DNA of 64,000 nt, from IMG/VR virus record IMGVR_UViG_2541047680_000004. One strand, 5' to 3'. The notes beneath the pieces are model-generated. The model was not told the DNA's origin. It did not search any database and saw only the letters and a list, made by a program, of their open reading frames with translations. The translations under genes were made by a program, and so were the position numbers. The stretch comes from a virus (lineage: Duplodnaviria > Heunggongvirae > Uroviricota > Caudoviricetes). Positions 8,334 to 50,013 of this stretch are shown here, piece by piece (the first letter of the stretch is position 1; every line of letters starts with the position of its first letter).

Positions 8334-8367
8334 ATGTTAATAGATAAGCACTTACCTATCAACGAGA

Positions 8368-12941: not shown

Positions 12942-13232
12942 ATCTTAAGCTTGCTCGAGAGGTGAGCAACCAAGACAGCACGGCACAGAAGAACATCAAC
13001 AGGCATAGTATTACAAAATAAATAGGTAAGTGAATACCTACCAAAATTGTTGAATGGATTGCTTACAAGGCGGCTAGAGTTTCATTGAAGTGCTTAGATG
13101 TATATGGTAGGCAAAAGTCTCATCGTTACATATGAATGAACTATCTCATGGGTCATGTATCATTTGATATTTTTATTATCAACAATTACTGTATAAGAGG
13201 AATTTTCCAAATTGAAAAAGGATTGATTATCA

Positions 13233-14490: not shown

Positions 14491-14593
14491 GTATGCTACC
14501 AGCGGTAATTGATAGTCTGTCAACGGTTCGCCGTATGCTGCCAACTGTTTTTGGTATGCTGCCAGCGGCAAATCAAGTATGCTGTCAGCGGTT
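14491..14593 (+). repeat. iteron cluster I (4 direct copies of a 16-bp repeat, consensus RTATGCTRYCAGCGGT)
   Basis: Copies at about 14491, 14533 (degenerate), 14554 and 14578; core GCTGNCAGC is itself palindromic. Confidence 0.8.
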
Positions 14594-14612
14594 GAATGAC
14601 AAAGGTGTCCAC

Positions 14613-15707
14613 ATGTCCACAAAAAATAAAAAAGGTAAAAATAACAAAGAAGTAGAAGATAATCTCGACAACTTTGAAGAAGGTTCCCTTGAATTGTACA
14701 CAGGGGAACTTGTCCCTAATAGCAACAATACAGTCCAACCAATTGCGTTGATGCGGCTGGGGTTGTTCGTGCCCACGCTCAAGGGGACAAAATACAGCAA
14801 GCGTAACAAGCCAAATGAGATCGATGCTTCAAAGGAGCTTGTTCAGCTCGAAGTAGCCCGTTCTGAAGGTTATTCCGATATCAAGATAACCGGTCCTCGT
14901 CTCGACATGGATCATGATTTCAAAACGTGGGTGGGCGTTGTGCGTTCGCTGGCAGAATACGGCGAACCTAACGGTCGTGTCGAGTTAAGCATCACGAAAT
15001 TTGCGAAGTTTTGTGGCTATCCATCGTCACAGATCCGCAAAACACTCCGCGACCGGCTTACAAACAGTCTTTTGAAGATCATGCGTACAACTCTGTCTTT
15101 TCAGAGAACGTATGAAGAAAAGAACGTCGACGGCTCTAACAAGATCTCGCTTCTGATGGTGCACCTCATCAATAGCGTGGACTACAACGAGCAGAAAGAT
15201 ACGGTGGTGTTCTATGCAGAACCGAAGCTGGCCGAACTATATCGCTTTGACCATAAGGTTCTTTTGCAGTTAAAGGTTATCAATAAGCTACCACGCAAAG
15301 AAACAGCACAGGCTCTGTACACCTTCATCGAAAGTCTTCCAACCAAGCCTGCGCCGGTATCGCTTGCTCGATTACGTGCGCGACTCAATTTGAGTAGCAG
15401 GAATGTCAGCTCGCAGAATCAGACTATACGTAACGGCTTAAAAGCTCTCCAAGATTTGGGCTATCTCGAATACAGCGAGATTAAGCGAGGGCGGTCGATC
15501 TATATCCAGATTCACAGCCGCAATCCAAAACTCAAAGTCGCACCGCCAAAACCTGAAGACATCGAACCCAAAAAACCAGATGAGAAAGCTGGGGAAATTG
15601 ATGCCAAACAGAACATTATCAACAAGATAACCGAACTTTCGCAGAATTTGACGCCTGAAAATATCAAGATGATTGAGATCCTTTCCAATAGTCTCAAACT
15701 GCTTTGA
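14613..15707 (+). CDS. putative iteron-associated DNA-binding / replication-initiator-like protein
   Basis: Plus-strand ORF (ATG at 14613; the ORF-track start 14493 lies inside the iterons) flanked on both sides by the 16-bp direct repeats; basic N-terminus; family not confirmed. Confidence 0.4.
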   Translation: MSTKNKKGKNNKEVEDNLDNFEEGSLELYTGELVPNSNNTVQPIALMRLGLFVPTLKGTKYSKRNKPNEIDASKELVQLEVARSEGYSDIKITGPRLDMDHDFKTWVGVVRSLAEYGEPNGRVELSITKFAKFCGYPSSQIRKTLRDRLTNSLLKIMRTTLSFQRTYEEKNVDGSNKISLLMVHLINSVDYNEQKDTVVFYAEPKLAELYRFDHKVLLQLKVINKLPRKETAQALYTFIESLPTKPAPVSLARLRARLNLSSRNVSSQNQTIRNGLKALQDLGYLEYSEIKRGRSIYIQIHSRNPKLKVAPPKPEDIEPKKPDEKAGEIDAKQNIINKITELSQNLTPENIKMIEILSNSLKLL

Positions 15708-17325: not shown

Positions 17326-17380
17326 GTGTTTTTCCTTTTGTGGTTAGTGTTTACTTATTTTGTTAGTTATGAATAGGCGA

Positions 17381-18932: not shown

Positions 18933-18994
18933 GTGTTTTCCTATGTGGTTGTTATGCGAAAATAATAAGTAAGCACTTATATATTTTCAAGAGA

Positions 18995-26000: not shown

Positions 26001-26595
26001 TGGCGACTTTCATCGCCCGGACGTTAATCTGGTCGTAGAATGGGGTAGGGTGCGGATAAACCACACTATAGAAGTTGTCTTTTCCACCCGCTGTAATCAG
26101 TGTGCTTATGATTTTTGCAAAATCGTTGCGTTGGAACACGCTACCGATGTCGGAAGTAAGCAGGATGATGTTGCCTTTGGCATATGTAGAAACCAACTGT
26201 TCGAGCGAGAGACGCGGTACAAAGTAGAACTGTTCTCGTGTGTTGGCCGCCGTCATTAGTTCGCAGATGTCGCGATATCCTTTCTCATTTTTAATTAGAG
26301 CGGTAAACGAGTAGTTACGTCCTCGCTCTAATGATTCCATACATCCCTTAGATTCTTTAGCAAGTTTAGCCCGGTGCTCGTATGTGGGATCATCAACGAT
26401 ATTTAGTTTCACACCACAAATAACCGCCATGTCGTCACCAGCGGCACGTTGTAGTGGAATAACACTCGCAATATTCATGCTATCTGCTGAAATTACAGCG
26501 GTGTAGCCAGCTTCTCTGGCAATCTTCACCGCGTTTTCTGCTTTTAAAGCCGACTCCCCAAGTGAGAAGTCAGTTCGAACCATCAGTGCCTTCAT
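23077..26595 (-). CDS. dnaE: DNA polymerase III alpha-like replicative polymerase (DnaE family)
   Basis: N-terminal PHP-like region and the GPGRGSSAGSLVAWCIGITNVDP ... LLFERFINPER signature of DnaE-family polymerases; 1172 aa. Confidence 0.85.
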   Translation of the reverse strand: MKALMVRTDFSLGESALKAENAVKIAREAGYTAVISADSMNIASVIPLQRAAGDDMAVICGVKLNIVDDPTYEHRAKLAKESKGCMESLERGRNYSFTALIKNEKGYRDICELMTAANTREQFYFVPRLSLEQLVSTYAKGNIILLTSDIGSVFQRNDFAKIISTLITAGGKDNFYSVVYPHPTPFYDQINVRAMKVASALKIEPVAFYPAYYESIDDADIKDIAHMVTNNIKIDQPHRLRIPHQRDNAVNGRRHLLEALKAFSVRMDVPVTAAMASTTQDTIIDACTWRWHELPPALPKMADDEPATLMKLAVAGLRKRLTTKEFGYTPPASENRVYVERLKYEMDTLTRLGFCGYFLMVRDLMNHSRETGIPVGPGRGSSAGSLVAWCIGITNVDPIRHGLLFERFINPERLDLPDADLDFSQARRHEVIEYLNERYGEDYVAGIPNFTYLGAASALRDTARIYGVESADMAVSKELKNVEDDSLPLEELREQLASLDKYATKYPDAFNAACKLQSLMRGFGRHAAGMIVAGVPLTERTPVERRGDARCIAFDKRYCEAMGLIKLDVLGLATLDLLDSAKRYIKENTGEDINLDAISLEDRKVLDGFAAGYTQGVFQLESGPMRKLLKDLGGGIEPMSFKTVVATTALFRPGPIQSGMLDDYVSVAKGFMTPESLHPVLDELTAETNGVILYQEQTMNATRLLAGFTMAEADAVRSAIGKKNMEKMKSMGEKFIVQAQAGWIDVELEDGTTQRIHRAEHFKCEDGTLKTVEEALEHGAKLPINAVRVTASHPGLSEMKAKEIWTAFEKNGAYQFNKSHSVAYSLISYQSMWLKTHYPAEFFAAALTILGEDKHQGLVKDALTYGIRVLPPDVNVSSNRIEIRTLEDGSQVLYAPFSAVKGCSENGCQAIMRAREKVGGKFESLAQFEEAVEKRACNSRVRESLQKVGAFASIEPGSLPATAPERLRDQAELMGNLVIDAVKASRPFEMNPKRSAEINVLMTRMAAEMGLGDELIRPSIGIKPKIMIILDNANGNDARTGYFMENGYDDFKAKLLTAGDLRMGDLYVTGVCKKVKDKEKDYTKDEIGQFTDFIREEINLVRPTYVLTCGSRATALFNNKNKPSDLVGRKEYLPDLDVTVFYGFNPNILYFRPEEGERLEAILADVAETIKT

Positions 26596-28012: not shown

Positions 28013-28107
28013 GCGTTTTTCCTTTGTTCTCTAATGAGCGTTCAACTTCTTATATAAATATATCATTATCTATCGTAAGTGGTTACTTATCGTTGAGGCT
28101 GTTTTGT

Positions 28108-30216
28108 TCACTTTAAAATGATACGAGATAGTTCAGTAACTACAGATGAACCAAGACTATCAACGCTCGTTACCAGGGCATGATTTGAGTAAAATCTTTC
28201 CGGTGCGTCAGTCATGATGCCAATTGCCATCAAATCAATATCAGTCTGCGTTTCAATTTGCTTCGCAACTGAACGCAAATGAGCGTCAAAACCTCTCCCA
28301 ACAGCCCACGGCGCGCCATCACTCAGAACAAGCATGATCTTCCTGTCCTCCAAGCGACCGGAAAATAACGATGCAAGGCTGGCTATGCTTTCACCATCCA
28401 CGTTATTAAGAAGTGGGAATGTGTAGCCTACGCACCCCATACGTGAGCGAACTTCGCGAGAATTTACCTTTTCATTCCAATTTTTGATGATAGGTAGCAT
28501 TAAAGATTCAAAGCGAGAGAACTCATACTTGACAGCCTTAAGTTCTCCTGCCGCCATATGACTACCAAATGTAGTGAAGCCGGTGATAATGTTGGGAACA
28601 TTTATTCGATCAAGGGCATCTGCGATGGTATATGCACTTGCAAGAGCCAATTGTATCGTTATACCACTCATTGAACCTGATAAATCAATCACTTGTTGAA
28701 CACAGGCGTTAACGGCTTTAGATTCTTCTTTTTTACGAAACACGCGATCATCATTCATTGCTAATCTGTAGATACTAGAACCATGAATGCGCCCCCGACG
28801 CTGGCCCGGTATAAACTGAACTCTGTTTCTGCTTGCTATTGCTCGCTCCAGGTCTTTTGCCAGCGTCGACGAAACACCTGACGAAAGATGCTTTTCAATA
28901 TATTTGTCGAAGAGCTGGTTGCCTTCAGGAACGATGCGATAGCGGCTGATTGGATATCCTCCTAAATCAATATCGGAGAATGTTTTAATAAGCCGTTTGA
29001 TATGGGCTTCTGCCTGATCAATCGAGCCGATGAAGTCGTATGAGCGATTGTATGGCCTGTATTCGCTTTTCGAGCTTTCTGTTAACTCGCTTTTAATCGT
29101 TTCGGATAGAGCATCTTCTGTCATGCCTCCGACTTCATCTTCTATGCTATCCAGCTCCTCTAAAGCCTCTTCCAGACTCATTTTTGACGGAGTTGGAATA
29201 TCTGAAGAGCCGTCTTCTGTCGTTTTTCTTTTTTCGTGGTCAGCGATAAATGATTCTGACACCGCGTTATCAGAAGCATCAGAATCTGATACCTCTTTAT
29301 CATTTTCTGTATCATCGAATATTGTTTCTGATGATTCAGAATTATCTGAATCATCACTGTCGTTATTATCATGTTTGTGCTTACTGTGTGATTCTGATTT
29401 GATAGATTTGTGATTATCTAACGCTGAGGGTGTCTCATGATCTTCGTTGTCTTCATTGTTTTCTCCAGAGGCATCCGTCTGGTCAGCGTCTGAAGGATCG
29501 GAAGTTTTTCCCGGAGCTGACTCCTTACCTTTGCTTTCACTTTCAGTGTCTTTGAGGATCTTAGCTATGGTCGCAGCCACCTTTACACAATCCTCGGTGC
29601 AAGACATGTTACGCACGGCCACATCGATACCATGTTCTTTTAATAATGAAATTGGTTTCTCAATGACAGGCCAATATTCATCCATGAAATCTACGAACGG
29701 TGCTTGGCCATCCCAGGCTCTTACAACCGGACAGAGAAAGAAGTTTAGAAAAAGCGCGCGCTGATCTTTGCCACAATAAGCAATAGCCTCTGAAGCCTTT
29801 GGTTTAAAGACTTTTTCGATTATAAGGCGCTGAGTTGCCATCAGATTACGTCTTGTTCCGTTAAAGACCTGACCCATTTTTCGCTCGATGAACACGTCTT
29901 CTAAGGCATTCCATAGCGACCAGGAAGGAACGCGTCCTTTTTCTCTCATTTTGTTGGACACACGAATATCGGTAAACAAAATGTGAGCAACCTCATGATC
30001 GAGAAATCCGCGCACAGCATTCATCAATGCCGGTGTTGCGTTATCCGGGATTGATGGGATGTTTACGAGAATTGGCTCTCCATCATCGTTATAGCGTACA
30101 TAAGCGTCGTCCCCTCGTTCTGCAACAGGGATGTTTTTACCTGAAAGGAGAGCGACTACTCGTTTTACACTGTCACGGAAGTCCTGAACCTCTTTGATAG
30201 AACGTTTTTTAGACAT
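28108..30216 (-). CDS. CobT-like von Willebrand factor A domain protein
   Basis: Central highly acidic Ser/Asp/Glu-rich low-complexity region and C-terminal vWA domain with MIDAS motif DLSGSMSG. Confidence 0.65.
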   Translation of the reverse strand: MSKKRSIKEVQDFRDSVKRVVALLSGKNIPVAERGDDAYVRYNDDGEPILVNIPSIPDNATPALMNAVRGFLDHEVAHILFTDIRVSNKMREKGRVPSWSLWNALEDVFIERKMGQVFNGTRRNLMATQRLIIEKVFKPKASEAIAYCGKDQRALFLNFFLCPVVRAWDGQAPFVDFMDEYWPVIEKPISLLKEHGIDVAVRNMSCTEDCVKVAATIAKILKDTESESKGKESAPGKTSDPSDADQTDASGENNEDNEDHETPSALDNHKSIKSESHSKHKHDNNDSDDSDNSESSETIFDDTENDKEVSDSDASDNAVSESFIADHEKRKTTEDGSSDIPTPSKMSLEEALEELDSIEDEVGGMTEDALSETIKSELTESSKSEYRPYNRSYDFIGSIDQAEAHIKRLIKTFSDIDLGGYPISRYRIVPEGNQLFDKYIEKHLSSGVSSTLAKDLERAIASRNRVQFIPGQRRGRIHGSSIYRLAMNDDRVFRKKEESKAVNACVQQVIDLSGSMSGITIQLALASAYTIADALDRINVPNIITGFTTFGSHMAAGELKAVKYEFSRFESLMLPIIKNWNEKVNSREVRSRMGCVGYTFPLLNNVDGESIASLASLFSGRLEDRKIMLVLSDGAPWAVGRGFDAHLRSVAKQIETQTDIDLMAIGIMTDAPERFYSNHALVTSVDSLGSSVVTELSRIILK

Positions 30217-30314
30217 GGCTAATCCTTTGTTATGAAAACAAATTATTTACTAGTGTGTTTAATGTAGCACTGCGCGAACAGGGAACTAAGCCATTCGCGC
30301 AGGGAGAAGAGGGG

Positions 30315-30527
30315 TTAACAGATTCTGACGGCTAAAGACCCGGAGCCGGTATTGAGAAGCGTGAAGCGTTTGTTGTTAAGTTCGAATATAAAGCCAGTTG
30401 TGTCATTCACACCAACCTGAATCTGCTCATTCGGTAGATCGGTGAGGATGTCAGCTACACACTCATCAGCTAATTTCTGTACGTGTCCGATCTCAAGAGC
30501 GATTAGGCTGGAAATAGTGGTGTTCAT
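30315..30527 (-). CDS. hypothetical protein
   Basis: 70-aa ORF upstream of the CobT-like gene. Confidence 0.3.
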   Translation of the reverse strand: MNTTISSLIALEIGHVQKLADECVADILTDLPNEQIQVGVNDTTGFIFELNNKRFTLLNTGSGSLAVRIC

Positions 30528-30778
30528 TCAATCAATCCATTCTAACTTATACTATGGTAAGGAATACTACTAAAATTTGTATCAATACTGAATACATTCA
30601 TATCATATGCAAGTTAATTTTCTTACCTATTTTGGGCTAGTTTTTCTCCGTGCAATGGCCTTTAACCGGTCTTTTAAGTGCCTATCGAAAAAAATGATAA
30701 TAGCTTTACAACCCTAACCTTTGATGTAATATCGGTAAGCACTTACCAGAGAGAATTGAACGCGCAAAGGTTGTAACC

Positions 30779-31165
30779 ATGTCTGATAACAAGATTGAAT
30801 TTATAGAAAGTCGCTACGCTGCTTTTATCGCAGGGTTGATTGAATCCTCACCTATGAGCCAGTCCCAGATAGCCAAAACAATTGGGTATAAAAACGCCAA
30901 CAACCTTTCTTTAATTAAAAGCGGCAAAATTCCTTTGCCTATCGATAAGGTTCGTCCGCTGGCGCTGGCACTGGGTATTGAGCCAAGTCGTCTTATGATG
31001 ATGGTGCTGGAAGAACGCCAACCCGAACTCGCAGCATTTTTATACAAAGAAGGCACTGCTCCTCTTAACGAGGACGAAAAACAGGTTCTTGCTGCATATA
31101 ACGAGCGATTCGGTAAAGAGAAAGGCGCATCACAAAAGGTTGTTGAGGCCATAAAGTCTCTATGA
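30779..31165 (+). CDS. helix-turn-helix transcriptional regulator (XRE/Cro-CI-like)
   Basis: SQSQIAKTIGYKNANNLSLIKSGK HTH motif; plus-strand gene with palindromic motif A (ggtaagcacttacc) about 40 nt upstream. Confidence 0.6.
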   Translation: MSDNKIEFIESRYAAFIAGLIESSPMSQSQIAKTIGYKNANNLSLIKSGKIPLPIDKVRPLALALGIEPSRLMMMVLEERQPELAAFLYKEGTAPLNEDEKQVLAAYNERFGKEKGASQKVVEAIKSL

Positions 31166-32263
31166 AAAATTTACACGAATAAGCTCTGTTGATAGACGAT
31201 CTCCCTTAAATTTGTGGTCAATTTCGTCTAAATCCGGTTGCTCTACGATTGATGCGATGTACGTCGAGAAACTTTCTAAGGCGTCTCGCATCTCGTCCAT
31301 ATAATCGTGCCGGTCGTAGACCCGATCTATCCCCTCAAGACTGTGGTTCATGATTTTACGTGATACCTCCTGGCTTATGCCTAATGCTGGGAAGTAACTA
31401 CGCGCAGTACGGCGCAAATCTCGGGGTGTAAATGGCTCAAGCTCCATCAGTTCTGGTCGTTCCAGAATACGACGTAATGCCTGGGCTATTGCCACTTTAG
31501 ACATAGGAAGGTCTTTCCCGATTTTTTTATTCGAAGGCACGAGCCACTGGCTGTCTTTACCGTATTCGAACAACTCTTCAATGCATGTGCGCATTAATGT
31601 GCTTAAAGGCAGCGAATGCTCACGTGCTGACTTGTTTCTCTTGCCTTGATTCCAAACCCCACGCTTAAGATTGAACTCACTTTTTTTAGCCCGCAGTACT
31701 TCGTCAGGTCGTCTTGCTGATACAAGACACAGTCTGGCCGCCCATTTTGTACCAGCGCACACATTGAAGTAGTCCCATATATTCCAGAACACCCATACCT
31801 CTGCGTCAGTCAGCTTCCGCTCGCGGGGCGTGGGCTTTGCGCCACCGGCAACTTTGTTAAGTGACATATCGTTTAACGGTGACACGTCTATCATCCCCTG
31901 GAAGGCGCACCAGCTAAGGAACTGCTTCATCAGAGAGAAAACGCGGCGGCCCATAACAATTTTGCCATCCAGTATTAGTGGGTTGACCAGTTGGTTCACC
32001 ATGAACCTATTAATGTCACTTACTTTTACATCGGCAATGTGCGGCAAAACATGTATCAAAATACAATGAACAGCGATCTCTGGCCGACGTCTGGTTATCA
32101 GCAGAGATAAGCGAGTGAATAACAGGAATGCGTCCGAGAATCTCATGTCATTGCTGACCTGGGAGATCATAACGGCCTGCATTTGAGATGCTCTTTCGAG
32201 ATACTCTATCGCCTCTTTTGAGGTGTTCTCCGCAGCGCGTGCTCTGTCAAAGCTATTTTTCAT
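31160..32263 (-). CDS. tyrosine site-specific recombinase (integrase/Cre/Xer family)
   Basis: C-terminal catalytic signature: R..PDEVLR, HSLP, PRDLRRTARSY (box II), IMNHS, VYDRHDY (nucleophile Tyr). Confidence 0.75.
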   Translation of the reverse strand: MKNSFDRARAAENTSKEAIEYLERASQMQAVMISQVSNDMRFSDAFLLFTRLSLLITRRRPEIAVHCILIHVLPHIADVKVSDINRFMVNQLVNPLILDGKIVMGRRVFSLMKQFLSWCAFQGMIDVSPLNDMSLNKVAGGAKPTPRERKLTDAEVWVFWNIWDYFNVCAGTKWAARLCLVSARRPDEVLRAKKSEFNLKRGVWNQGKRNKSAREHSLPLSTLMRTCIEELFEYGKDSQWLVPSNKKIGKDLPMSKVAIAQALRRILERPELMELEPFTPRDLRRTARSYFPALGISQEVSRKIMNHSLEGIDRVYDRHDYMDEMRDALESFSTYIASIVEQPDLDEIDHKFKGDRLSTELIRVNFS

Positions 32264-32361
32264 ATGACAATCACCGAGTTACGCCGATGCACTGTATAAG
32301 TAAACAGTATATTAGGCATAGATTCTTATAGGATCAAGAGTAAAAGTAACTCATTTTCAGC

Positions 32362-32396
32362 AATGATTCCATACATAGTAGGTATGGAATCATTTT
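32362..32396. promoter_or_regulatory. lox/dif-like candidate recombination site: 13-bp inverted arms with 7-bp spacer
   Basis: aatgattccatac-atagtag-gtatggaatcatt, perfect inverted repeat about 100 bp upstream of the tyrosine recombinase gene. Confidence 0.5.
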
Positions 32397-32473
32397 GACG
32401 TTGTTTTTTGAATTTTAAGGGAAATGGGAGTGAGTTTGGTGGGAATAAAAACGGCTCCTGTGAGCCGTTAAAA

Positions 32474-32719
32474 TCAGAGGGTGCTGACGTATGCAGCCAG
32501 TTCTGTGTATCCGCCAATCGGCTGGCCTTCGATCAGCACCTGGGGGATAGTCTCTACCGGTTTACCAACAATTTCACTTAGTTTTTCCTTGTCGATACCG
32601 GCAGTGGTGATGTCGATGTACTCATAATCACCGTAGCCATGTCCCTTTAGTTGCTTCGCTAGCTCGACCGCACGTTTGCAGTATGAGCAGTTATCTCGTC
32701 CGTAGATAGTGATCGTCAT
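32474..32719 (-). CDS. glutaredoxin / NrdH-like redoxin
   Basis: MTITIYGRDNCSYCKRA with CxxC active site near the N-terminus and thioredoxin-fold length; start taken at the internal Met with GAGG RBS. Confidence 0.7.
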   Translation of the reverse strand: MTITIYGRDNCSYCKRAVELAKQLKGHGYGDYEYIDITTAGIDKEKLSEIVGKPVETIPQVLIEGQPIGGYTELAAYVSTL

Positions 32720-32893
32720 TGTTACCTCATAGAATTGATATGCAACTTTACTCACAAAGAAGATAGGTATGTGCATACTTATCTTTGCAGTCTGCATTAT
32801 AAAGCTATTAAAGCCTCGATCAATCTATTAATTAAGGCATTGTTTGGTTAACATTACCCTAATATTTTATAGTTAGTAGAGTGAAATACATAC

Positions 32894-34156
32894 ATGCCTT
32901 TTTTAATTTTCATTATTATACTACTGCTCACCGTGATTTTTTGGGATTGGGTTGTTTTAAATGGTCAAATTGTTGGAACATTGGCTACAGCATTTGCTTT
33001 TATAGCAACAGCATGGAATGCCTACGAAGCGAGAAAAAGTGCAAAAGCAGCTTTTTCAGCCCTTCAATTAACAACAGAATCATTGTTCGAAATGCGAAAG
33101 AGTGCATTTAAACAATGGTTTGATTCCTTATTAAATCAACATGATGAGCTATGTCTTCTTGCAAAACAAATTATCGATAAACGCAAAATTAATTTAAACA
33201 GCGATGAGTTACATAGACTATATTACCCATTGGTAAAACAGCATGAGGTAATACAGTATGTGAAGCATATTATTAATATTTTTGAGTATGTGGATAGTTC
33301 ATTTTATATTGATGGGGAATGTCTAAAGGAAAAAAGAGCGTATGTGTCACAATTAATTTTCAAAATCCCACCTCAGATGAAGTTGATCATTGCTATCTTT
33401 GGATTAAAGATCGATTATTGTGAACATATTAATTCGGGAAAACTGTGTTGTTTATTAAATAAATATGATTTTTTCAATGATGAAATATTTTTTGATGATG
33501 CTTATTCAGATATGCCTTATCTGGATGCATTCATAAACCTTAGATTCAACAAAATATTCAAATCTCGAATGATAAATTATTTTGATAATATCATTAAAAG
33601 TTATTATGTTCCATCGGACGTTAAAAGGGACTGGATGTTTCGAGACCCAAAGCTCGTACCGTCGGTTCTTATGAATTATAAAACTCCTTGTTCTCCTATA
33701 ATTAATGATTACTTTGAGAAGTTGCCTTTACATGTAAGAAACTACTTTGAGGAACTACTTAAAACCGCGAATGATAGAGTTACTCATTTTGACGTTTACA
33801 TCCCACGCCTTATTGGTTGTTCAATCGTGCAACATTACGAAGATGTGCCTTCCGAAAAAAACAGGTTAAATGACAGGAATGATGTAATAGCTATGGCTGA
33901 AGATTACATCGAGAAAAGAAAATCTAATCAACTAGATTACATACTTGAAGATATATACTTCAAGAGTGACGAAGATATAATCCCAGGCCACCATTTGATT
34001 GTGGCATTTGATGACTATGAATTTAAATTATCACTCATTAAGATAAATGAGAATAAAGATAGCGATAATCTTTTAAATCGAATTTATACTGAATCCAGTA
34101 GCATGGTTAAAGAATATAAGCGCGAAATATTAAAACTGGGCGACTATGTAAAGTAA
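32894..34156 (+). CDS. AT-rich membrane-anchored hypothetical protein (candidate accessory/defence-type gene)
   Basis: 420-aa ORF on the opposite strand to its neighbours; two N-terminal hydrophobic helices; sequence visibly more AT-rich than flanking genes; own terminator downstream. Confidence 0.5.
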   Translation: MPFLIFIIILLLTVIFWDWVVLNGQIVGTLATAFAFIATAWNAYEARKSAKAAFSALQLTTESLFEMRKSAFKQWFDSLLNQHDELCLLAKQIIDKRKINLNSDELHRLYYPLVKQHEVIQYVKHIINIFEYVDSSFYIDGECLKEKRAYVSQLIFKIPPQMKLIIAIFGLKIDYCEHINSGKLCCLLNKYDFFNDEIFFDDAYSDMPYLDAFINLRFNKIFKSRMINYFDNIIKSYYVPSDVKRDWMFRDPKLVPSVLMNYKTPCSPIINDYFEKLPLHVRNYFEELLKTANDRVTHFDVYIPRLIGCSIVQHYEDVPSEKNRLNDRNDVIAMAEDYIEKRKSNQLDYILEDIYFKSDEDIIPGHHLIVAFDDYEFKLSLIKINENKDSDNLLNRIYTESSSMVKEYKREILKLGDYVK

Positions 34157-34174
34157 ATTGCACTGTTCAACAAA

Positions 34175-34200
34175 AAAGGGGCCGAAGCCCCTTTGAATTT
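34175..34200 (+). terminator. rho-independent terminator
   Basis: aaggggc-cgaa-gcccctt hairpin followed by tgaatttt. Confidence 0.55.
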
Positions 34201-34348
34201 TGCGCTGAAAAAAGTGTTGCTAGGATGTTAGCAAGCTATGGTTAAGAACGTCTGCCGTAATTATCTATCACAGCGTTGAGCGGTCTGGTTTATGTTAGCG
34301 GAGTCTTAATCGAGTTGATTAAAAGGCCAAACCGCTCAACGCTGTGTC

Positions 34349-34435
34349 TGGCGGAGAGTAATGGAATCGAACCATCATCGTTTGCACAATGGGACGGTTT
34401 TCAAGACCGCTTGAGCACCATGCTCCCTACTCTCC
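34349..34435 (-). tRNA. tRNA-Ser (anticodon UGA), long variable arm
   Basis: Manual fold of the reverse complement: acceptor ggagagt/actctcc, anticodon loop cuUGAaa, T-arm ggttcgattcc, encoded CCA; about 87 nt. Confidence 0.6.
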
Positions 34436-34755
34436 AGCTATTGTGATGGTCGGTGCTGAACTCCGACACAGGGTTGTAGCAAGCCCCGCAAAGCGCGCAC
34501 TACTGTAGTTGCGGCACATCAGCCTGTGCATTCATCACAATGGTAAGATCACTACCTTTCGACCAGTCATTGTGCACATGAACGACGATTAACCGTAATG
34601 ATATTATCGTTGTGTTGTGAAGCCAGATGCTTATCTTCTGGTTGCTTCAAAGAGCTGCACTTCCTCACAACGGTAAGAGCACTGGTCTGACTCTATCGAT
34701 TTACGGCCTTGTGGGTCAGTATCGCCGATTCGCCCAATGCTCTTACCTGTTGTGT

Positions 34756-34831
34756 TGGTGCCGGTTAACGGACTTGAACCGCTGGCCATTCGCTTACAAA
34801 ACGACTGCTCTACCAACTGAGCTAAACCGGC
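34756..34831 (-). tRNA. tRNA-Thr (anticodon UGU)
   Basis: Reverse complement gccggtttagctcagttggtagagc ... ttUGUaa ... ggttcaagtcc ... aaccggcacca; one mismatch at the top of the anticodon stem. Confidence 0.55.
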
Positions 34832-34835
34832 AATT

Positions 34836-34922
34836 TGGTGGGGAGTGATGGAGTCGAACCACCCGAGTCGCCATGACAGTAGATTTACAGTCTACACCGC
34901 TACCTCTACGGACTAACTCCCC
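34836..34922 (-). tRNA. tRNA-Tyr (anticodon GUA), long variable arm
   Basis: Reverse complement ggggagt ... actGUAaatc ... ggttcgactcc ... actccccacca. Confidence 0.6.
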
Positions 34923-34927
34923 TAAAT

Positions 34928-35002
34928 TGGCGATGGTGGGTGGATTCGAACCACCGACCAGTTGGTTAACAGCCAACTGCTCTACCGCTGAGCTACACCA
35001 TC
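34928..35002 (-). tRNA. tRNA-Asn (anticodon GUU)
   Basis: Reverse complement gatggtgtagctcagcggtagagc ... ctGUUaa ... ggttcgaatcc ... caccatcgcca. Confidence 0.65.
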
Positions 35003-35780
35003 AATTCAGCACTGCCAGTATTTATTACTCAACAGTGCCAATCGCGACGGTTTAGTTTCTGCCAGGAAACGCACCGCTACTTGCACTTTTCGTTAGTGCC
35101 AGACGCTTTCGACTTCGCTCAATAGTAGAAGGCAAAATCTTTAAGTAGATGATGTTTCTGAGGACAGCACCTACTTTGTAATTTATACAATGTGATGTAT
35201 GGAATCATTTGTTGTGAAAACAGGCACCAATGGCAACAGTGGTTAAACCTACACAACAATCCCGTCTTCACAACGTTGAGGCCACTACTCCGATTGAATG
35301 TTTGCCCAACATGTTACATATCAACGCTCGCCGGTATCTCTGTGAATAGAACCTTAGAATTGATAAAAATGTAATGGCCTCAACGTTGTGTGCTGGCTAA
35401 CCATACCAGCCGGGCTACGTCGCCGCTTTTTAACCCAGTATAAACGACATAATTGAACAAAATGACGTAACAGGATGGGCGGTCAGTGGCTAAGAATCCG
35501 GGAGTCATATGGAGTTGAAAATATACCAACCGCCCATTCTGTTACTTCATCGGAGGGAACATGAATGTTCCCTCCTGCGTTCTGCAATCACACTCGCTCA
35601 GTGTGTCCCATTTCGGTAACGAGGCTGGAAACTGACCTCGCTGGTGTTTGGCTTATTAGGCTACTGCCAGATAGACTTCTTCGTTTGCACTTGTATTTAA
35701 GTTCAAACAGTCGCGTCTCAACGAAAACAAAGTCATCTTATACACAAAAGATAAGTAAGTAAATACTTATCATTGTATTT

Positions 35781-36071
35781 TTATTCGGTTGTGACTTTTT
35801 TGATCAAGGCCACTCTACGACTAGGTGTTCTTGTGATGGTGGCAGTGAATCGTTTCGCCTGGATAGTAATGGTTTCGTTCTCCTTAAGTTGCCCGTAGCG
35901 AGTTTCCACCAGGGTGCCAAGACGCCACAGACCATCATCGATACGTTTATGACTAGCAAATTTAATCAGCAACAGTTTTACGACTAACTGACCTACGTAA
36001 AAGGCGAATGCGACTCCGGCCGCTAAGAAATAGGTGGCCAACCACCAGTCCCAAGAAGTTAAATTGCTCAT
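35781..36071 (-). CDS. small membrane-anchored hypothetical protein
   Basis: 96-aa ORF with N-terminal hydrophobic helix. Confidence 0.35.
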   Translation of the reverse strand: MSNLTSWDWWLATYFLAAGVAFAFYVGQLVVKLLLIKFASHKRIDDGLWRLGTLVETRYGQLKENETITIQAKRFTATITRTPSRRVALIKKVTTE

Positions 36072-36591
36072 TTTCTAACCTTTGTTTCATGAACTACCCG
36101 ATACACACGCTTTCCGATACACAGTGTTTTGGTTTTAAGTTCCTGCTTAATTAAATCACGACAGATGCCGAAGCCGATAAGGAAGCCACCCATAAAAGCT
36201 AATGAGATGTATGGAATCATTTTAACACTCCTGATTCTACTAATTGCTGTAGCAATACTTTCCCTTTATCAGTTAACTGGTAGTTGGCCGAACACTTCGT
36301 TTCAGAAACGTTTGCAACCAACCCTAACCGCTCTAACTTAGCTCGCGTTTTAGGCTTCCAGTACTCAGGGAACTCCGGCCACTTACTGATTTCATGAAGC
36401 GTTTCCTTCTCCCGTTTACTTAATACGATCATCCTTAATCTCCTTCACGGTGTTGGTTATTTCTACAATGCGATAAATGCGACCTCGTCTTTCTATAACA
36501 CCGTTTTTAATGTAGTCATTAATGCAACTGGACATCACCACAATACCGATGAAAAAACCAACTGCTAAAAATGCAATCATCCAGCCGAGCA

Positions 36592-37914
36592 TCATTCTTT
36601 ATCTCCGATTCGATCTTCTGTATCGCGTAAGCAACGCGGCCATTTCAGTCGTGGGTGGCGTAAGCTGCCATCCGGCGTTTTCTCGTGACAATGAACCTCG
36701 ACAATACGACCACGGTACTTCTCTTTGTTGTTCCAGATCTCGTCCAGATATTTATGCTTAATGCCGCTCGCACGAACAATCACACCGTTTTCAAGGCGAA
36801 TAACAATTTTTCCAAGCGTGTTGGCAAAACCAGAGTCCGGGTCGCCCGGCTCAAAGTCGATAATTTCACCATCTTCTGAATCTTCGTCTTTTAACTTCCA
36901 CCAGCTGCGGGTACGTTTAAACTCGTAAACAGAGTTCGGATCTTTGCCCATCTCCCCTTCTTCGTTATCGTCCAGGCGTTTCATGAAGCGTTCGATGAAA
37001 TCTTCGTGGCTATGGATGATATAGAACGGATGCAGGTGAATGTCTTGTGCGTAGCCTTCACTGCGATCGTTTTTAAACAACGCCACCAGCATAGCCAGGC
37101 GCTCTTTCAGCTTCATACCTGTCTTTGCATACTCTTTGGATTTAGCCTGTGCCCGCCATTCCGGTAGGAAGAAGTCGAAAACATGATAAATAGCGCCAAT
37201 TGCCTGCACGTTCTTTTTGCGCAATGCAGATACGGACTGGTTAAATGAACCGGCTGTTCCTTCACCATCGAAGAAGATGTGTTTGTGGCCTGAAAGTTTG
37301 CCTAATTCGAGCATTGCTGGCTTTAGGTGATCGAGAGACGTGATTGGATTACCAGTACGAGAAAGGAAGTTAACCTCTTCCTCGTCAACAATAACCTCGC
37401 AAATTACTCGCAAACCATCGAGCTTAAGACTGCCAATCATCGGCCATTTTGCTTTAGGATTTGGCTTGAAGGGGTATTTGTCGCCTTTTTCTTTATACGG
37501 TGACGCCAGCTGCACCTCGAATTTCGGAATGGGATTTTCAAAAACCTTGTTGCATAGGCTAATCCCAACACCTGCTTTCGGGTCTTTTAAGAGGAAACGA
37601 CGGAACACGTCCTGCCCATCGGCGCACATTGACGCCACGATAGACTCAACAGCTGCTATTGCTGCGTTCCCCGTTAGCTCGCGAGAGGCCAGCTTATTCA
37701 GTATATCAATGGCTTTTTCGTCACTTGGGACGGACTCACTAAGCGGCTCTGCCACTTTGTATTTCTTTACCCCAAAACGGATGAAAGGGTTGAGCATCAA
37801 TGAAACCATGCTTTGTTCAAAGTCATCCATGTTGGCCAATGCCTCTTTTTTTGCATTGGTTCCCATAGCTTTCATTTCGTCCAGCTTATGCTTAAGTGCG
37901 ATCAACTTTTTCAT
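36592..37914 (-). CDS. ATP-dependent DNA ligase
   Basis: Adenylation motif I KLDGLR, motif III FFDGEG, motif V WWKLK; 440 aa. Confidence 0.8.
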   Translation of the reverse strand: MKKLIALKHKLDEMKAMGTNAKKEALANMDDFEQSMVSLMLNPFIRFGVKKYKVAEPLSESVPSDEKAIDILNKLASRELTGNAAIAAVESIVASMCADGQDVFRRFLLKDPKAGVGISLCNKVFENPIPKFEVQLASPYKEKGDKYPFKPNPKAKWPMIGSLKLDGLRVICEVIVDEEEVNFLSRTGNPITSLDHLKPAMLELGKLSGHKHIFFDGEGTAGSFNQSVSALRKKNVQAIGAIYHVFDFFLPEWRAQAKSKEYAKTGMKLKERLAMLVALFKNDRSEGYAQDIHLHPFYIIHSHEDFIERFMKRLDDNEEGEMGKDPNSVYEFKRTRSWWKLKDEDSEDGEIIDFEPGDPDSGFANTLGKIVIRLENGVIVRASGIKHKYLDEIWNNKEKYRGRIVEVHCHEKTPDGSLRHPRLKWPRCLRDTEDRIGDKE

Positions 37915-45929: not shown

Positions 45930-46289
45930 TCAACCTTTCTTCATTAACTCGCGTTTAATTTCATCGGTACGCATCGTGACATCGGCAGCAGTGATCGCCT
46001 CGTTCAGCTTCACGATGTCCTCGATTTCCTGCGGTGTCTTCTCCGCAAGATGGAAAATAGCAGCACGAATCACATCAGAGCGGGTGAATTTCTCGAAGCG
46101 AGGGATGAACTTCATCATCTCCAGCAGTTCGAAGTATTCGTCTTCCAGTGACATTGTGCGGCTTTTAATTTTCTCTTTGCCACGAGTCGGGCGTCCCTGT
46201 GGTCTGACTGGTTGGCGCAAAGGAGTTGTGTTCTTAGCCGGTGCATCAGGCTCTTTGCGCTTTGCTAGGTCACCCATTTTCATGGACAT
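45930..46289 (-). CDS. small partition-associated DNA-binding protein (ParB/ParG-like candidate)
   Basis: 119-aa basic protein translationally coupled (ATGA-type overlap at 46289) to the ParA-like gene; arrangement typical of type Ib partition loci. Confidence 0.45.
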   Translation of the reverse strand: MSMKMGDLAKRKEPDAPAKNTTPLRQPVRPQGRPTRGKEKIKSRTMSLEDEYFELLEMMKFIPRFEKFTRSDVIRAAIFHLAEKTPQEIEDIVKLNEAITAADVTMRTDEIKRELMKKG

Positions 46290-46957
46290 TATTCTTCTTC
46301 CTCCAGACTCAACAGATAATCTACAAATTCTTCAAACTCGGCTTCCGCCTTTTTGTCGCGCTCGCTACCGGTCATTTCAAAGATAGAACGACCAGACTCT
46401 TCCGCATCATCATAGACGTTGCGGTTATATAGATTGACTGGCGCAGACTCGATGCCAAACGTCTCAACAATCTCTTTAGCCGCCAGAATGCGAGACACTT
46501 GTGATGGCAAAGCCGGGCACTGGTTCATGACCGCGCGGACCTTCACTTTATCGTTTACATTACGAACATTGTCGATAATAGGATCGATGTCACGCAGAGA
46601 TTTCAAATCACGACGCTTAGGACGAAGCGGGATAATGATAACGTCGGCCATCAGCATCGCTTGTCGCTGAATTTCGGAGTCAAAGCCACCAGCATCTACC
46701 ACTACATACTCAGCTCTACCCTGAAGCGATTTTAGGTGCTTAATGATGTCATCCTGAACGTATGCAAAAGGAATCAGCTCAAGGTCTTCGTTCTGTCGAC
46801 GGTCTTCACACCAGCTCGTTGTCGTGCGCTGAATATCTATATCGGTGATATAAACCTTCTTCTTCTTTTTGACTTTCAGGCAAACGGCAATTTGCTGGGC
46901 TACGGTGGATTTGCCTGGCCCGCCCTTTGTGCCGCCAACCACAAAGATCTTGGTCAT
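46289..46957 (-). CDS. parA: ParA/Soj-family partition ATPase
   Basis: Deviant Walker A KIFVVGGTKGGPGKST at N-terminus; 222 aa (small ParA class). Confidence 0.8.
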   Translation of the reverse strand: MTKIFVVGGTKGGPGKSTVAQQIAVCLKVKKKKKVYITDIDIQRTTTSWCEDRRQNEDLELIPFAYVQDDIIKHLKSLQGRAEYVVVDAGGFDSEIQRQAMLMADVIIIPLRPKRRDLKSLRDIDPIIDNVRNVNDKVKVRAVMNQCPALPSQVSRILAAKEIVETFGIESAPVNLYNRNVYDDAEESGRSIFEMTGSERDKKAEAEFEEFVDYLLSLEEEE

Positions 46958-49944: not shown

Positions 49945-50013
49945 GAAAAGTCAAATCGGGATGGCGGATTTATATCACATTTCACCCTTTTGTTGTAGGT
50001 GTGTGCTTACCTA

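Follow-up and report, generated by a model that had tools for sequence, protein, structure and literature searches.

What is the function of the region at 30779-36230 of the window, the 64,000-nucleotide stretch of phage DNA analyzed here? An HTH gene, a tyrosine recombinase gene, a glutaredoxin gene, an AT-rich ORF and a set of tRNA genes lie there side by side, and the initial annotation read them as a single lysogeny island. All of these features are present at the positions given, and the strand bias is broken twice as had been described, by the + strand HTH gene and AT-rich ORF within a - strand run. We asked what element carries the region, which of its genes belong together and what the recombinase acts on.

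The element and the genes of the region

Many E. coli plasmids of ~110 kb, which are SSU5-supergroup phage-plasmids, are 98-99% identical to the window in nucleotide sequence, and phage Cyrano is 98.3% identical. The window thus belongs to a phage-plasmid of E. coli, of the pSLy3/Cyrano type within the SSU5 supergroup, in agreement with the SSU5-type assignment of the initial annotation; the phage-plasmid nature of the element was already known. The predicted replication and partition loci were also found elsewhere in the window: a Rep3-type initiator gene (14493-15707) with at least 13 iterons (GTATGCTGTCAGCGGT) and a ParA-type ATPase gene (46289-46957). The window contains two large ORFs (1432 aa and 1576 aa), and a near-identical plasmid is annotated with terminase, portal, capsid and tape-measure genes. 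Cyrano is maintained as a plasmid at 5.5 copies, is induced 39-fold by ciprofloxacin and makes siphovirus particles (PMC9928086). SSU5-type elements are known in the literature solely as plasmids (PMC9600943).

Over the region, the E. coli pSLy3 group (Cyrano/pLF82, pECOH89, p09EL50) is 98-99% identical to the window at the nucleotide level and has the same gene order, cobS-cobT-70aa ORF-HTH-recombinase-site-grxA-tRNAs-ligase. The 70-aa ORF (30315..30527, - strand; PHROG 2627) is divergent from the HTH gene, opens the leftward run (cobT, cobS, dnaE) and is part of a module missing from phage SSU5, which by sequence comparison lacks the entire stretch 30315-34926. The window differs from Cyrano in cargo: its slot next to the site is empty, and it carries the AT-rich orphan gene and tRNA-Tyr as a fourth tRNA gene, whereas in Cyrano CYRAN_43 and a Gp49-family gene are found instead. 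The single lysogeny island did not survive these comparisons. The HTH and recombinase genes are conserved core genes of the supergroup and no insertion, and grxA goes with nrdAB. The region is a composite, in which regulation, maintenance and cargo of the phage-plasmid are probably combined.

The grxA gene (32474..32719, - strand) encodes a GrxA-family glutaredoxin (NCBIfam NF008401, 106 bits against a cut-off of 84) and is a nucleotide-metabolism gene, the partner of the element's nrdAB. The grxA promoter spans 32796-32823, and 32766-32779 is an operator-like palindrome. The AT-rich orphan gene (32894..34156, + strand) encodes a 420-aa protein with a hydrophobic N-terminus. The composition change noted earlier is real in this ORF (GC 0.324 in 33001-34000; most of the window's other 1-kb bins are at roughly 0.42-0.50) and is confined to it. 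In relatives, the same slot (cargo slot 2) is filled by a Gp49-family gene, a different orphan gene or a transposon of the Tn3 family. The tRNA cluster Asn-Tyr-Thr-Ser (34349..35002, - strand) comprises tRNA-Asn(GUU) at 34928-35002, tRNA-Tyr(GUA) at 34836-34922, tRNA-Thr(UGU) at 34756-34831 and tRNA-Ser(UGA) at 34349-34435; Tyr is missing from Cyrano, and Asn is the only one present in SSU5. We favor the view that the AT-rich gene is variable cargo and that the tRNAs are a variable set.

The HTH gene and a dispersed palindrome

The HTH gene (30779..31165, + strand) encodes an XRE-type protein of 128 aa without a peptidase (autocleavage) domain. Its Pfam HTH_19 match (E 0.0015) falls under the cut-off, and a profile search assigns it to PHROG 8, 'transcriptional regulator' (E 1.5e-11). 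It is the orthologue of CYRAN_45, whose transcript in the lysogen is 10-fold above the prophage background (PMC9928086). A promoter scan identified TTTACA-16-TAATAT followed by a palindrome (30705..30747, + strand). This perfect palindrome, GGTAAGCACTTACC, lies at 30734-30747, directly 3' of the promoter and 32 bp upstream of the gene's own start, and is a candidate operator. The palindrome block is kept in pMT1, pHCM2 and Enterobacter (first base A, not G) and also in p09EL50 and Klebsiella (GGTAAGTACTTACC) elements.

The motif recurs in the window, with 13 matches against 3.7 expected (0/100 shuffles reached 13). Seven of the 11 distinct sites are intergenic, compared with an intergenic share of 8.5% of the window (P ~7.5e-6). 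Six of these seven precede the start of a leftward gene by 17-84 bp and the seventh is the HTH gene's own; in all, similar palindromes precede at least seven other genes in the window. Most likely the HTH gene encodes the prophage repressor with GGTAAGCACTTACC as its predicted operator, and the protein would bind there and at the similar palindromes before several early and nucleotide-metabolism operons. The palindrome regulon could also belong to another regulator. From the operator-like palindrome shared with other promoters, the transcription in Cyrano lysogens and the absence of the HTH gene from SSU5 we infer that the region may act as the lysis-lysogeny switch.

The recombinase, its candidate site and the cargo boundary

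The tyrosine recombinase gene (31160..32263, - strand; Pfam Phage_integrase, E 4.6e-10) is convergent with the HTH gene and overlaps it by 6 bp. The protein belongs to the lambda/P4 lineage and has core-binding and catalytic domains; domain and structure comparison found no arm-binding domain, and this domain (PF13356) is restricted to the next-nearest homologues (26-34% identity). An AlphaFold model (pLDDT 87) was closest to lambda Int residues 75-356. R185, K211, R284, H307 and Y316 are kept throughout the recombinase family (45-99% identity), while the first catalytic histidine is arginine (R281) in the whole family. Judging by the sequence, we assume that the enzyme is active. Of 5,426 complete E. 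coli genomes, 251 carry the gene, at 254 places altogether; every one of the 254 copies is on a plasmid and none on a chromosome. One plasmid with an IS inside the recombinase promoter still persists, so the gene is non-essential for maintenance.

Upstream of the gene we found a candidate core recombination site of 13-7-13 architecture (32362..32394). Its arms (AATGATTCCATAC / GTATGGAATCATT) are perfect 13-bp inverted repeats around the asymmetric 7-bp spacer ATAGTAG, ~100 bp upstream of the recombinase gene and 25-57 bp upstream of its -35. Repeated 14-mers had been noted before, and they are real: GTATGGAATCATTT is exact at 32382, 35197 and 36209 (+) and has one mismatch at 32361 (-) and 26329 (-), five matches against 0.71 expected in the window (0/100 shuffles reached 5). 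They are not generic repeats, as two of the five (32361 and 32382) are the arms of the palindrome 32362-32394, which the initial annotation had missed.

The inverted repeat accompanies the recombinase across Enterobacterales: in 57 of 58 species loci it precedes the homologue by 43-151 bp; the remaining locus is truncated by the locus end. Homologues of 56-86% identity have ATGATTCCATAC arms. Homologues of 45-52% identity, found on Pantoea, Rahnella and Erwinia megaplasmids with no adjacent HTH homologue, have ATGACTCCAGAC arms, in which the same two positions are altered in both arms. In SSU5-group elements whose flanks are just 71-75% identical, the arms are identical and the 7-bp spacer is variable. 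This association and co-variation show that the site belongs to the recombinase, and catalysis at the 13-7-13 site is what we infer from the sequences. The candidate target site of this recombinase was previously undescribed. The complete sequence of a near-identical plasmid contains a single full site, and a search of 185,579 species genomes found no free target site without an adjacent recombinase gene in Enterobacterales. The spacer is present in either orientation relative to the recombinase gene, which is beyond what conservative recombination can produce.

The recombinase promoter (32290..32337, - strand) has its -35, TTGATC, at 32337-32332 and its -10, TAATAT, at 32314-32309. As read from the sequence, a LexA box, CACTGTATAAGTAAACAGTA (32290-32309), overlaps the -10 and the start site between the inverted repeat and the gene; the window contains no other near-consensus LexA box. 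It is kept upstream of the recombinase in relatives: strict CTGT-N8-ACAG was present in all five phage-plasmid loci fetched, and among species loci it was present in 3 of 7 that bear the HTH gene and in none of 50 that do not. Within the recombinase family, the HTH gene is itself restricted to phage-plasmid members. LexA thus probably controls this promoter in phage-plasmids, the box being absent in plasmid-only relatives, and DNA damage should raise its expression. In the near-identical plasmid, a second LexA box precedes an S24-peptidase gene, outside the window.

The site also marks a boundary of relatedness. Homology to Cyrano, PhiR41_1, CMS-2020a and many plasmids ends at 32394-32396; the alignment of pMT1 with pHCM2 starts at the same base, the outer edge of the repeat; and pRM9975-1 and an Enterobacter element share 75.5% identity on the side of the recombinase and 90.6% on the opposite side, where the 90.6% block opens with the base that follows the arm. 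In every comparison, the outermost base of the distal arm is where cargo starts, and the sequence beyond is unrelated, which supports the accessory-gene hotspot proposed earlier. Cargo slot 1 (32395..32473) is nearly empty in the window (sole content, the grxA terminator at 32450-32469). In relatives it holds 0.9 kb to >6 kb, and cargo beyond the site includes the Yersinia pestis caf1 operon. In Cyrano, the slot 1 gene CYRAN_43 is the top-transcribed prophage gene, 723-fold above background (PMC9928086). The sharp boundary could partly reflect selection for an intact site.

Three solo arms (26331, 35197 and 36209) are extra to the full site. The copy at 35197..35210 (+) lies in a 22-mer, AATGNGATGTATGGAATCATTT, in common with 36201-36222, and the copy at 36209..36222 (+) overlaps the start codon of a 50-aa ORF (36068-36220; MIPYI...).

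Proposed role, alternatives and known systems

Our preferred explanation, which we hold to be more likely than not, is a lox-like resolution/exchange site with a LexA-boxed recombinase, a candidate repressor and cargo. The recombinase, having lost its arm-binding domain, would act on the single simple site upstream of its own gene. Its most likely job would be to convert plasmid multimers to monomers, as Cre/loxP does for P1, because each replicon carries a single site and no copy is chromosomal; it may also circularize incoming DNA. Recombination at the site between co-resident relatives, followed by a homologous crossover at another place, would exchange all the DNA to one side of the site, so that variable cargo would always start at the last base of the distal arm. 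Several observations count against this explanation: SOS induction has no obvious need in a resolution system, a pure resolution role leaves the three solo arms over, the spacer occurs in both orientations, arginine replaces the first catalytic histidine, and a plasmid with an IS in the recombinase promoter persists.

There are several other possibilities. The HTH protein may be a mere local regulator of the recombinase or nearby cargo, with the true switch elsewhere and the region serving maintenance and cargo. We regard this as the most serious competitor, though doubtful: the missing autocleavage domain, the sub-threshold Pfam matches, the LexA-boxed S24-peptidase gene and the sequence-based nature of the palindrome-HTH link all suit it, whereas the best palindrome is at the HTH gene's own promoter and kept across the supergroup, and the gene is transcribed in Cyrano lysogens (PMC9928086), limited to phage-plasmid members of the family and missing from SSU5, known as a free phage. 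Unlikely, in our estimate, is an SOS-controlled cargo-acquisition platform resembling intI/attI, in which foreign DNA with a full or half copy of the arm would be joined to the element at the site and the diverse cargoes would have come in this way. The exact cargo edge, the integron-like LexA box, the strong transcription of CYRAN_43 in the slot and the non-random solo arms would fit, as would a solo arm that PhiR41_1 carries towards the distal end of its 6.4-kb fimbrial cargo, within DNA that is unrelated apart from the arm. Yet no cargo was flanked by two sites, and the 20 kb of pMT1 cargo beyond the site contained no solo arm. Two of the solo arms, at 36209 and 26331, are located within conserved genes and are retained in SSU5, itself without the recombinase, and the spacers beside solo arms (ATGTGAT, ATGAGAT) do not match that of the site. 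Regional cargo such as ISEcp1 (35691-35695) and a Tn3-family element came by ordinary transposition, and exchange between two site-bearing relatives accounts for the boundary without capture.

The two remaining alternatives concern the recombinase itself. It would be very surprising if the inverted repeat were a transcriptional operator only (e.g. for autoregulation). Its position just upstream of the -35 and the arginine in place of the catalytic histidine would allow this, but two 13-bp inverted arms around an asymmetric 7-bp spacer are built like a core site of tyrosine recombinases, the nucleophilic tyrosine is kept along with the other catalytic residues, and relatedness steps exactly at the site. 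Least probable of all, and remotely so, is a classical lysogeny module in which the recombinase integrates and excises the phage chromosomally under a CI-like HTH repressor. The annotation 'site-specific integrase', the P4-type prophage integrases as nearest relatives outside the family, the predicted SOS control and the adjoining HTH gene speak for it. Against it stand the exclusively plasmid-borne E. coli copies and the absence of recombinase-free sites from the Enterobacterales searched, both of which also speak against a chromosomal integrase. Further, neither an arm-binding domain nor arm-type sites are found, same-site homologues lie on megaplasmids where the fetched flanks hold only metabolic, transport and regulatory genes, and the literature knows such elements as plasmids only.

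The resolution/exchange system that we propose resembles several known systems in part. Rci of the R64 shufflon is a lambda-family recombinase without arm binding, and its sfx sites keep one arm only, which resembles the solo arm copies here; unlike in the shufflon, no relative showed inversions between copies and the spacers mismatch. Integrons share with this element LexA at the recombinase promoter (integron recombinase promoters are LexA-controlled; control is predicted here) and variable genes from a site adjoining the recombinase gene. The element differs in having no attC-type sites or cassette array, its cargo includes whole operons and IS elements, and the recombinase is no nearer to IntI than other tyrosine recombinases are (Foldseek E 2e-4 for the integron integrase 2a3v). 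With lambda Int and P4 integrases, its nearest outgroup by sequence, the recombinase shares the core-binding and catalytic fold, and lambda core sites have a 7-bp overlap region, as long as the spacer here. It differs from them in lacking the N-terminal PF13356, in the arginine substitution, in its perfect-palindrome site without arm-type sites and in never being found integrated. The operators of the P1 C1 repressor are dispersed over the genome, and here too a single candidate repressor gene goes with at least 8 similar operator-like sites before separate operons; the motif here is a palindrome and the operators are candidates. The recombinase has no sequence match in the PDB, hence no sequence kinship to Cre (Foldseek ~E 1e-2, 11% identity), the loxP spacer is 8 bp rather than 7 bp, and the LexA box and the predicted function are further differences. 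What the recombinase shares with P1 Cre/loxP is the arrangement: a low-copy phage-plasmid with one recombinase gene beside one inverted repeat with 13-bp arms and an asymmetric spacer, and no accessory arm sites.

The phage-plasmid and its composite region

The window element is a phage-plasmid of the SSU5 supergroup and falls in the pSLy3 group, the published placement of such E. coli elements (PMC7969092, PMC12977533). Over 7 kb, the region under study shares 98-99% nucleotide identity with many ~110-kb E. coli plasmids, its identity to Escherichia phage Cyrano is 98.3%, and pTW10722_119 matches the window collinearly over 10.5 kb at 98.7%. Elsewhere in the window we found a Rep3 initiator with at least 13 flanking iterons and a ParA-type ATPase, both reported in the initial annotation when it inferred a phage-plasmid, and that inference was correct. 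A near-identical plasmid, a relative of the element, has annotated genes for terminase, portal, capsid and tape measure. For near-identical relatives the phage-plasmid nature is already established: Cyrano is a plasmid of ~5.5 copies per cell that is induced 39-fold by ciprofloxacin and gives siphovirus particles imaged by EM (PMC9928086).

The initial annotation described the stretch 30779-36230 as a lysogeny-like island. Every feature that it listed is present: an XRE-type HTH gene (30779-31165, +), a tyrosine recombinase gene (31160-32263, -), a GrxA-family glutaredoxin gene (32474-32719, -), an AT-rich ORF (32894-34156, +) and four tRNAs. The stretch is instead a composite, as the HTH and recombinase genes are found across relatives, so it is not an island.

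The remaining features have separate associations. The usual electron donor of class Ia ribonucleotide reductase is grxA and the element encodes nrdAB; therefore, we placed grxA with the nucleotide-metabolism genes. The AT-rich ORF (420 aa, DNA GC 0.324) is an orphan. It belongs to only seven protein clusters, all named ones being from E. coli, it has no family match in Pfam or NCBIfam, and its AlphaFold model (pLDDT 60, pTM 0.37) was too poor for use. PADLOC was run on the region proteins and on the cargo proteins of relatives and gave nothing convincing, its sole match being a weak partial PtuB for this ORF. The tRNAs (Ser, Thr, Tyr and Asn, all on the - strand) were the only matches to pass in an Rfam scan of 29500-37500, in which weak tmRNA-like matches fell far below threshold. 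P1, P7 and D6, phages that are phage-plasmids of another group, have a tRNA-Thr/Asn region with 82-85% identity to the tRNA stretch 34327-35007. Two long hairpins with 20-bp stems and a common stem motif, CACARCGTTGAG, bracket the tRNA cluster at 34269-34346 and 35269-35390 (folding z-scores on the - strand of -9.6 and -5.8, respectively), and the second is conserved in SSU5.

A 33-bp site paired with the recombinase

Two of the repeats seen in the initial annotation form a perfect palindrome, AATGATTCCATAC-ATAGTAG-GTATGGAATCATT, at 32362-32394, ~100 bp upstream of the recombinase start codon. The repeated 14-mer reported there, GTATGGAATCATTT, is real, with 5 matches (at most two mismatches) versus 0.71 expected and none of 100 shuffles reaching 5. 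In pMT1 of Yersinia pestis, pHCM2 of Salmonella Typhi, and Klebsiella and Enterobacter elements, the same 12-13-bp arms and 7-bp spacer lie upstream of the recombinase; the site flanks are only 71-75% identical to the window and the spacers differ. A near-identical 119.8-kb plasmid holds exactly one full site. We also considered that the inverted repeat codes for a small peptide (MIPY...), which was rejected since the reading frame is not kept between lineages.

A scan for the site pattern in one genome per species (185,579 species) returned 69 loci, 58 of them in Enterobacterales. In 57 of these 58, the distance between the site and a recombinase homologue is 43-151 bp; the remaining locus is cut by its end, and a homologue is encoded on the same contig. 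The other 11 matches, from outside Enterobacterales, show different arm combinations without a homologue and appear to be chance occurrences. Arms of the type ATGATTCCATAC accompany recombinase homologues of 56-86% identity, while arms of the type ATGACTCCAGAC, with the same two positions changed in both arms, accompany homologues of 45-52% identity. The latter homologues reside on Pantoea, Rahnella and Erwinia megaplasmids with no HTH homologue beside them, and three fetched megaplasmid flanks contain only metabolic, transport and regulatory genes. Thus, the co-variation of arm and enzyme and the occurrence of distant homologues without the HTH link the repeat with the recombinase rather than with the HTH gene. 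Two natural arm specificities with matching enzymes are possible orthogonal lox-like tools.

Between lineages, and in both arm clades, the 7-bp spacer is found in exact reverse-complement forms (CTATTAA and TTAATAG). Oriented by the recombinase gene, it reads CTACTAT in the window and ATAGTAG in PhiR41_1. Spacer positions compared were 32375-32381 in the window, 11372-11378 in fetched locus L011, and those of loci L014-L082. Ordinary conservative recombination cannot flip the spacer relative to the gene; a simple site lacking fixed accessory sequences would at least allow either orientation.

At 80% or more protein identity, the recombinase is found in 786 plasmid records (592 of them at 80-90%), including Yersinia pestis pMT1, Salmonella Typhi pHCM2, and Klebsiella and Enterobacter elements. 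In the fetched phage-plasmid loci the HTH gene lies convergent beside it, with cobT-cobS beyond. The family is a tight clade that extends from 99% down to ~44% identity, followed by a gap and then by P4-type integrases at 26-34%. The arm-binding domain PF13356 is present only in that outgroup and is missing from the window recombinase. The AlphaFold model (pLDDT 87.4) has a two-domain fold, core-binding and catalytic, in which the N-terminal 60 residues are helical; the best structural match in the PDB is lambda Int 75-356, with a TM-score of up to 0.73 (target-normalised). A PDB sequence search gave no usable match and none to Cre, and Foldseek aligned the model to Cre at E ~1e-2 and 11% identity. 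Catalytic residues R185, K211, R284, H307 and Y316 are conserved in the family. At the position of the first catalytic His, >90% of 60 aligned sequences (99% down to 24% identity) have Arg (R281, codon 31421-31423), a caveat for the predicted recombinase activity. Five relatives (loci L003, L004, L005, L006 and L007, at 4607-4618) contain a one-mismatch arm copy, GTATGGAATCAA, inside the recombinase gene at codons VWNQ; the window gene has no internal copy within one mismatch. The recombinase gene is probably not essential for maintenance, since ISKox3 is inserted in its promoter and LexA box in an otherwise intact plasmid (L084, NZ_CP061531.1, 3713-4933; window ~32296).

Cargo at the site and the proposed role of the recombinase

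The window ceases to align with Cyrano, PhiR41_1, CMS-2020a and many plasmids at 32394-32396, where the distal arm ends, and the alignment of pMT1 and pHCM2 begins at the same base. Beyond this edge the elements differ. The window has only the grxA terminator there, Cyrano has CYRAN_43, which is highly expressed, and p09EL50 has a NanS-p-like esterase. Several E. coli, Klebsiella and Enterobacter elements carry a YafO toxin module, and PhiR41_1 carries an AraC regulator with a chaperone-usher fimbrial operon. In pMT1 (L090, NZ_CP009971.1, 844-13425), the caf1 F1-capsule operon is followed by two IS elements and then by phospholipase D (murine toxin), so that plague capsule and toxin genes adjoin the same site in the Yersinia relative. 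Upstream of grxA is another variable slot, occupied in the window by the AT-rich ORF and in other elements by a Gp49-family gene, a different orphan gene or a Tn3-family transposon. Several related plasmids have ISEcp1-blaCTX-M at window 35691-35695 (L013 7695-10665), where the flanking alignments overlap by 5 bp, suggestive of a target duplication; these phage-plasmids thus carry ESBL genes, blaCTX-M being one, within the flagged region. The variable cargo in both slots, together with ISEcp1-blaCTX-M, therefore confirms the accessory-gene hotspot proposed in the initial annotation, which is also known in kind.

The simplest explanation for the cargo boundary is an exchange between the sites of two co-resident relatives, in which the second crossover would occur by homologous recombination. 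Relatedness between plasmid pRM9975-1 and an Enterobacter element changes at the site: identity is 75.5% on the side of the recombinase and 90.6% on the other, the latter from the first base past the arm. Capture of cargo in the manner of an integron would also place variable genes next to a recombination site, but it is the weaker account because none of the cargo has a site on both sides and pMT1 is free of solo arms (lone copies of one arm) over 20 kb. If the site drives exchange between elements, this would explain the movement of virulence and resistance cargo among these plasmids.

Solo arms with a shared extension, ATGATTCCATACATC, are present at 26331-26345 (-), 35194-35210 (+) and 36206-36222 (+), with the arm copies at 26331, 35197 and 36209. 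The copy at 36209 forms the start-codon region of a conserved 50-aa ORF and that at 26331 lies inside dnaE. SSU5, which has no recombinase, keeps two solo arms exactly and the equivalent of 35197 with one mismatch; PhiR41_1 has a further solo arm in unrelated cargo (L011 17265-17281). A general rule in which cargo is bounded by a full site and a solo arm was rejected, given the 20 kb of pMT1 free of solo arms and the two solo arms inside conserved genes common to SSU5. Large plasmids (183-231 kb) were considered as fusions made at the site, and the one inspected, of 218 kb, had an ordinary Tn3-family transposon insertion instead.

SSU5-supergroup phage-plasmids occur in ~4.6% of complete E. 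coli genomes (251/5,426), in which the gene and site occupy 254 places, all on plasmids and none chromosomal. No site without an adjacent recombinase gene was found in Enterobacterales in the 185,579-species scan. Chromosomal integration was rejected on these two results. The field view is that phage-plasmids are without integrases (PMC11652158, PMC12977533), and the "integrase" here is best seen as a lox-like simple-site recombinase. We favor multimer resolution as its role, an inference by analogy, because the arrangement of site and gene is that of P1 Cre/loxP; circularization of incoming DNA would be a possible added role.

Predicted SOS control, the candidate repressor and known systems

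A candidate LexA box, CACTGTATAAGTAAACAGTA, lies at 32290-32309, one mismatch from consensus, and is predicted to overlap the -10 element of a TTGATC-17-TAATAT promoter facing the recombinase gene. A single such match is not significant alone (89 of 100 shuffles give at least one within two mismatches). The case for SOS control comes instead from the uniqueness of the box, its conservation in phage-plasmid loci and its absence where there is no HTH gene. The window holds no other such box, and the strict motif is present at this position in 5/5 fetched phage-plasmid loci and 3/7 HTH-bearing species loci, compared with 0/50 loci without the HTH. The only other good LexA box in a whole relative plasmid (L086, NZ_CP035843.1, 15681-15700) is a perfect one, TACTGTATGTGTATACAGTA, located outside the window just upstream of an S24-family peptidase gene.

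The HTH protein (128 aa) has HTH matches only and no S24 autocleavage domain; the S24 gene, with its own LexA box, is elsewhere in the near-identical relative. The HTH promoter, TTTACA-16-TAATAT, is directly followed by a perfect palindrome, GGTAAGCACTTACC (30734-30747), and this block is conserved in pMT1, pHCM2, p09EL50, and Enterobacter and Klebsiella elements. A divergent 70-aa ORF is separated by a conserved 250-bp intergenic region, in which we saw this one perfect palindrome at the HTH promoter and no tandem operators; PDB sequence searches with the HTH protein and the 70-aa ORF gave no usable match. Similar palindromes (consensus ~ATAGGTAAGTGCTTACCTAT) lie at 8343-8356 upstream of nrdA, at 13025-13038, 17342-17355 and 18968-18981, at 28074-28087 upstream of cobS, at 32766-32779 in the grxA promoter, and at 49998-50011. 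The window contains 13 matches versus 3.7 expected, a number reached in 0 of 100 shuffles. Seven of the 11 distinct sites are intergenic, against 8.5% of the window (P ~7.5e-6); the count is eight with the real grxA start. Six of the seven are 17-84 bp upstream of a leftward gene start, and the seventh is 32 bp upstream of the HTH start. The palindrome family looks like a dispersed operator or promoter set, for which the HTH protein is a candidate repressor and the palindromes its putative operators. The HTH orthologue CYRAN_45 is transcribed in lysogens 10-fold above the prophage background (PMC9928086).

In the initial annotation, island genes conserved and essential for lytic growth in all relatives would have counted against its reading. 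Phage SSU5, which is known as a free phage and used in lytic cocktails, is without the module: window 30315-34926 is absent at SSU5 8414-8650 (L089, NC_018843), where cobT is directly followed by tRNA-Asn, so that the 70-aa ORF, HTH, recombinase, site, grxA, cargo and three tRNAs are missing. A protein search with the HTH found ten phage records, none of them SSU5. One is only a weak partial match; the other nine (four from E. coli, five from Klebsiella) hold the protein in full length, and most of these sequences were recorded from bacterial strains. These comparisons go the other way: the module absent from SSU5 is dispensable for lytic growth and seems to accompany the plasmid state. The proposal that the region contains the switch is plausible.

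The recombinase gene and the HTH gene converge in every case, with a 6-bp overlap in the window, and the only terminator-like hairpin after them (30923-30939) is weak. We speculate that SOS-induced transcription could therefore continue antisense across the HTH gene into the leftward operon. Taken jointly, the recombinase and its 33-bp site would be an SOS-triggered exchange platform of phage-plasmids and enterobacterial megaplasmids, with the LexA-controlled promoter as the induction trigger, a reading that we regard as unlikely. Such a platform would shift whole cargo segments between site-bearing replicons or capture single-arm DNA, and might be the route by which cargoes such as the Yersinia pestis F1 capsule (caf1) locus reached the site; in phage-plasmids, transcription from the promoter would cross the convergent repressor gene in antisense and reach the leftward early operon. 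The analysis yields testable parts: the 33-bp site, the LexA box and a 14-bp candidate operator with mapped targets.

Our literature search did not find the site, its LexA control or an SSU5-type switch mechanism described; what it did find is general, namely that the SSU5 supergroup has tyrosine recombinases among its persistent genes and that phage-plasmids may resolve dimers with recombinases. An S24 autocleavage domain, expected of the repressor in a CI/Cro-type immunity region, is not present in the HTH protein of the window. The integron resemblance lies in a LexA-controlled integrase promoter, here a predicted LexA box, but there is no attC-flanked cassette array, and the cargo includes operons and IS elements that are not flanked by repeat sites. 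The heterobivalent integrases of lambda and P4 type have an N-terminal arm-binding domain and arm-type sites in attP, neither of which goes with the window recombinase. In arrangement the pair resembles P1 Cre/loxP, with a single simple site beside the recombinase on a low-copy replicon and two inverted arms around an asymmetric spacer (13-7-13 here). The recombinase has no sequence homology to the Cre family and is not a member, although it may work alike. Recombinase and site are new as a characterized pair but of a known kind.
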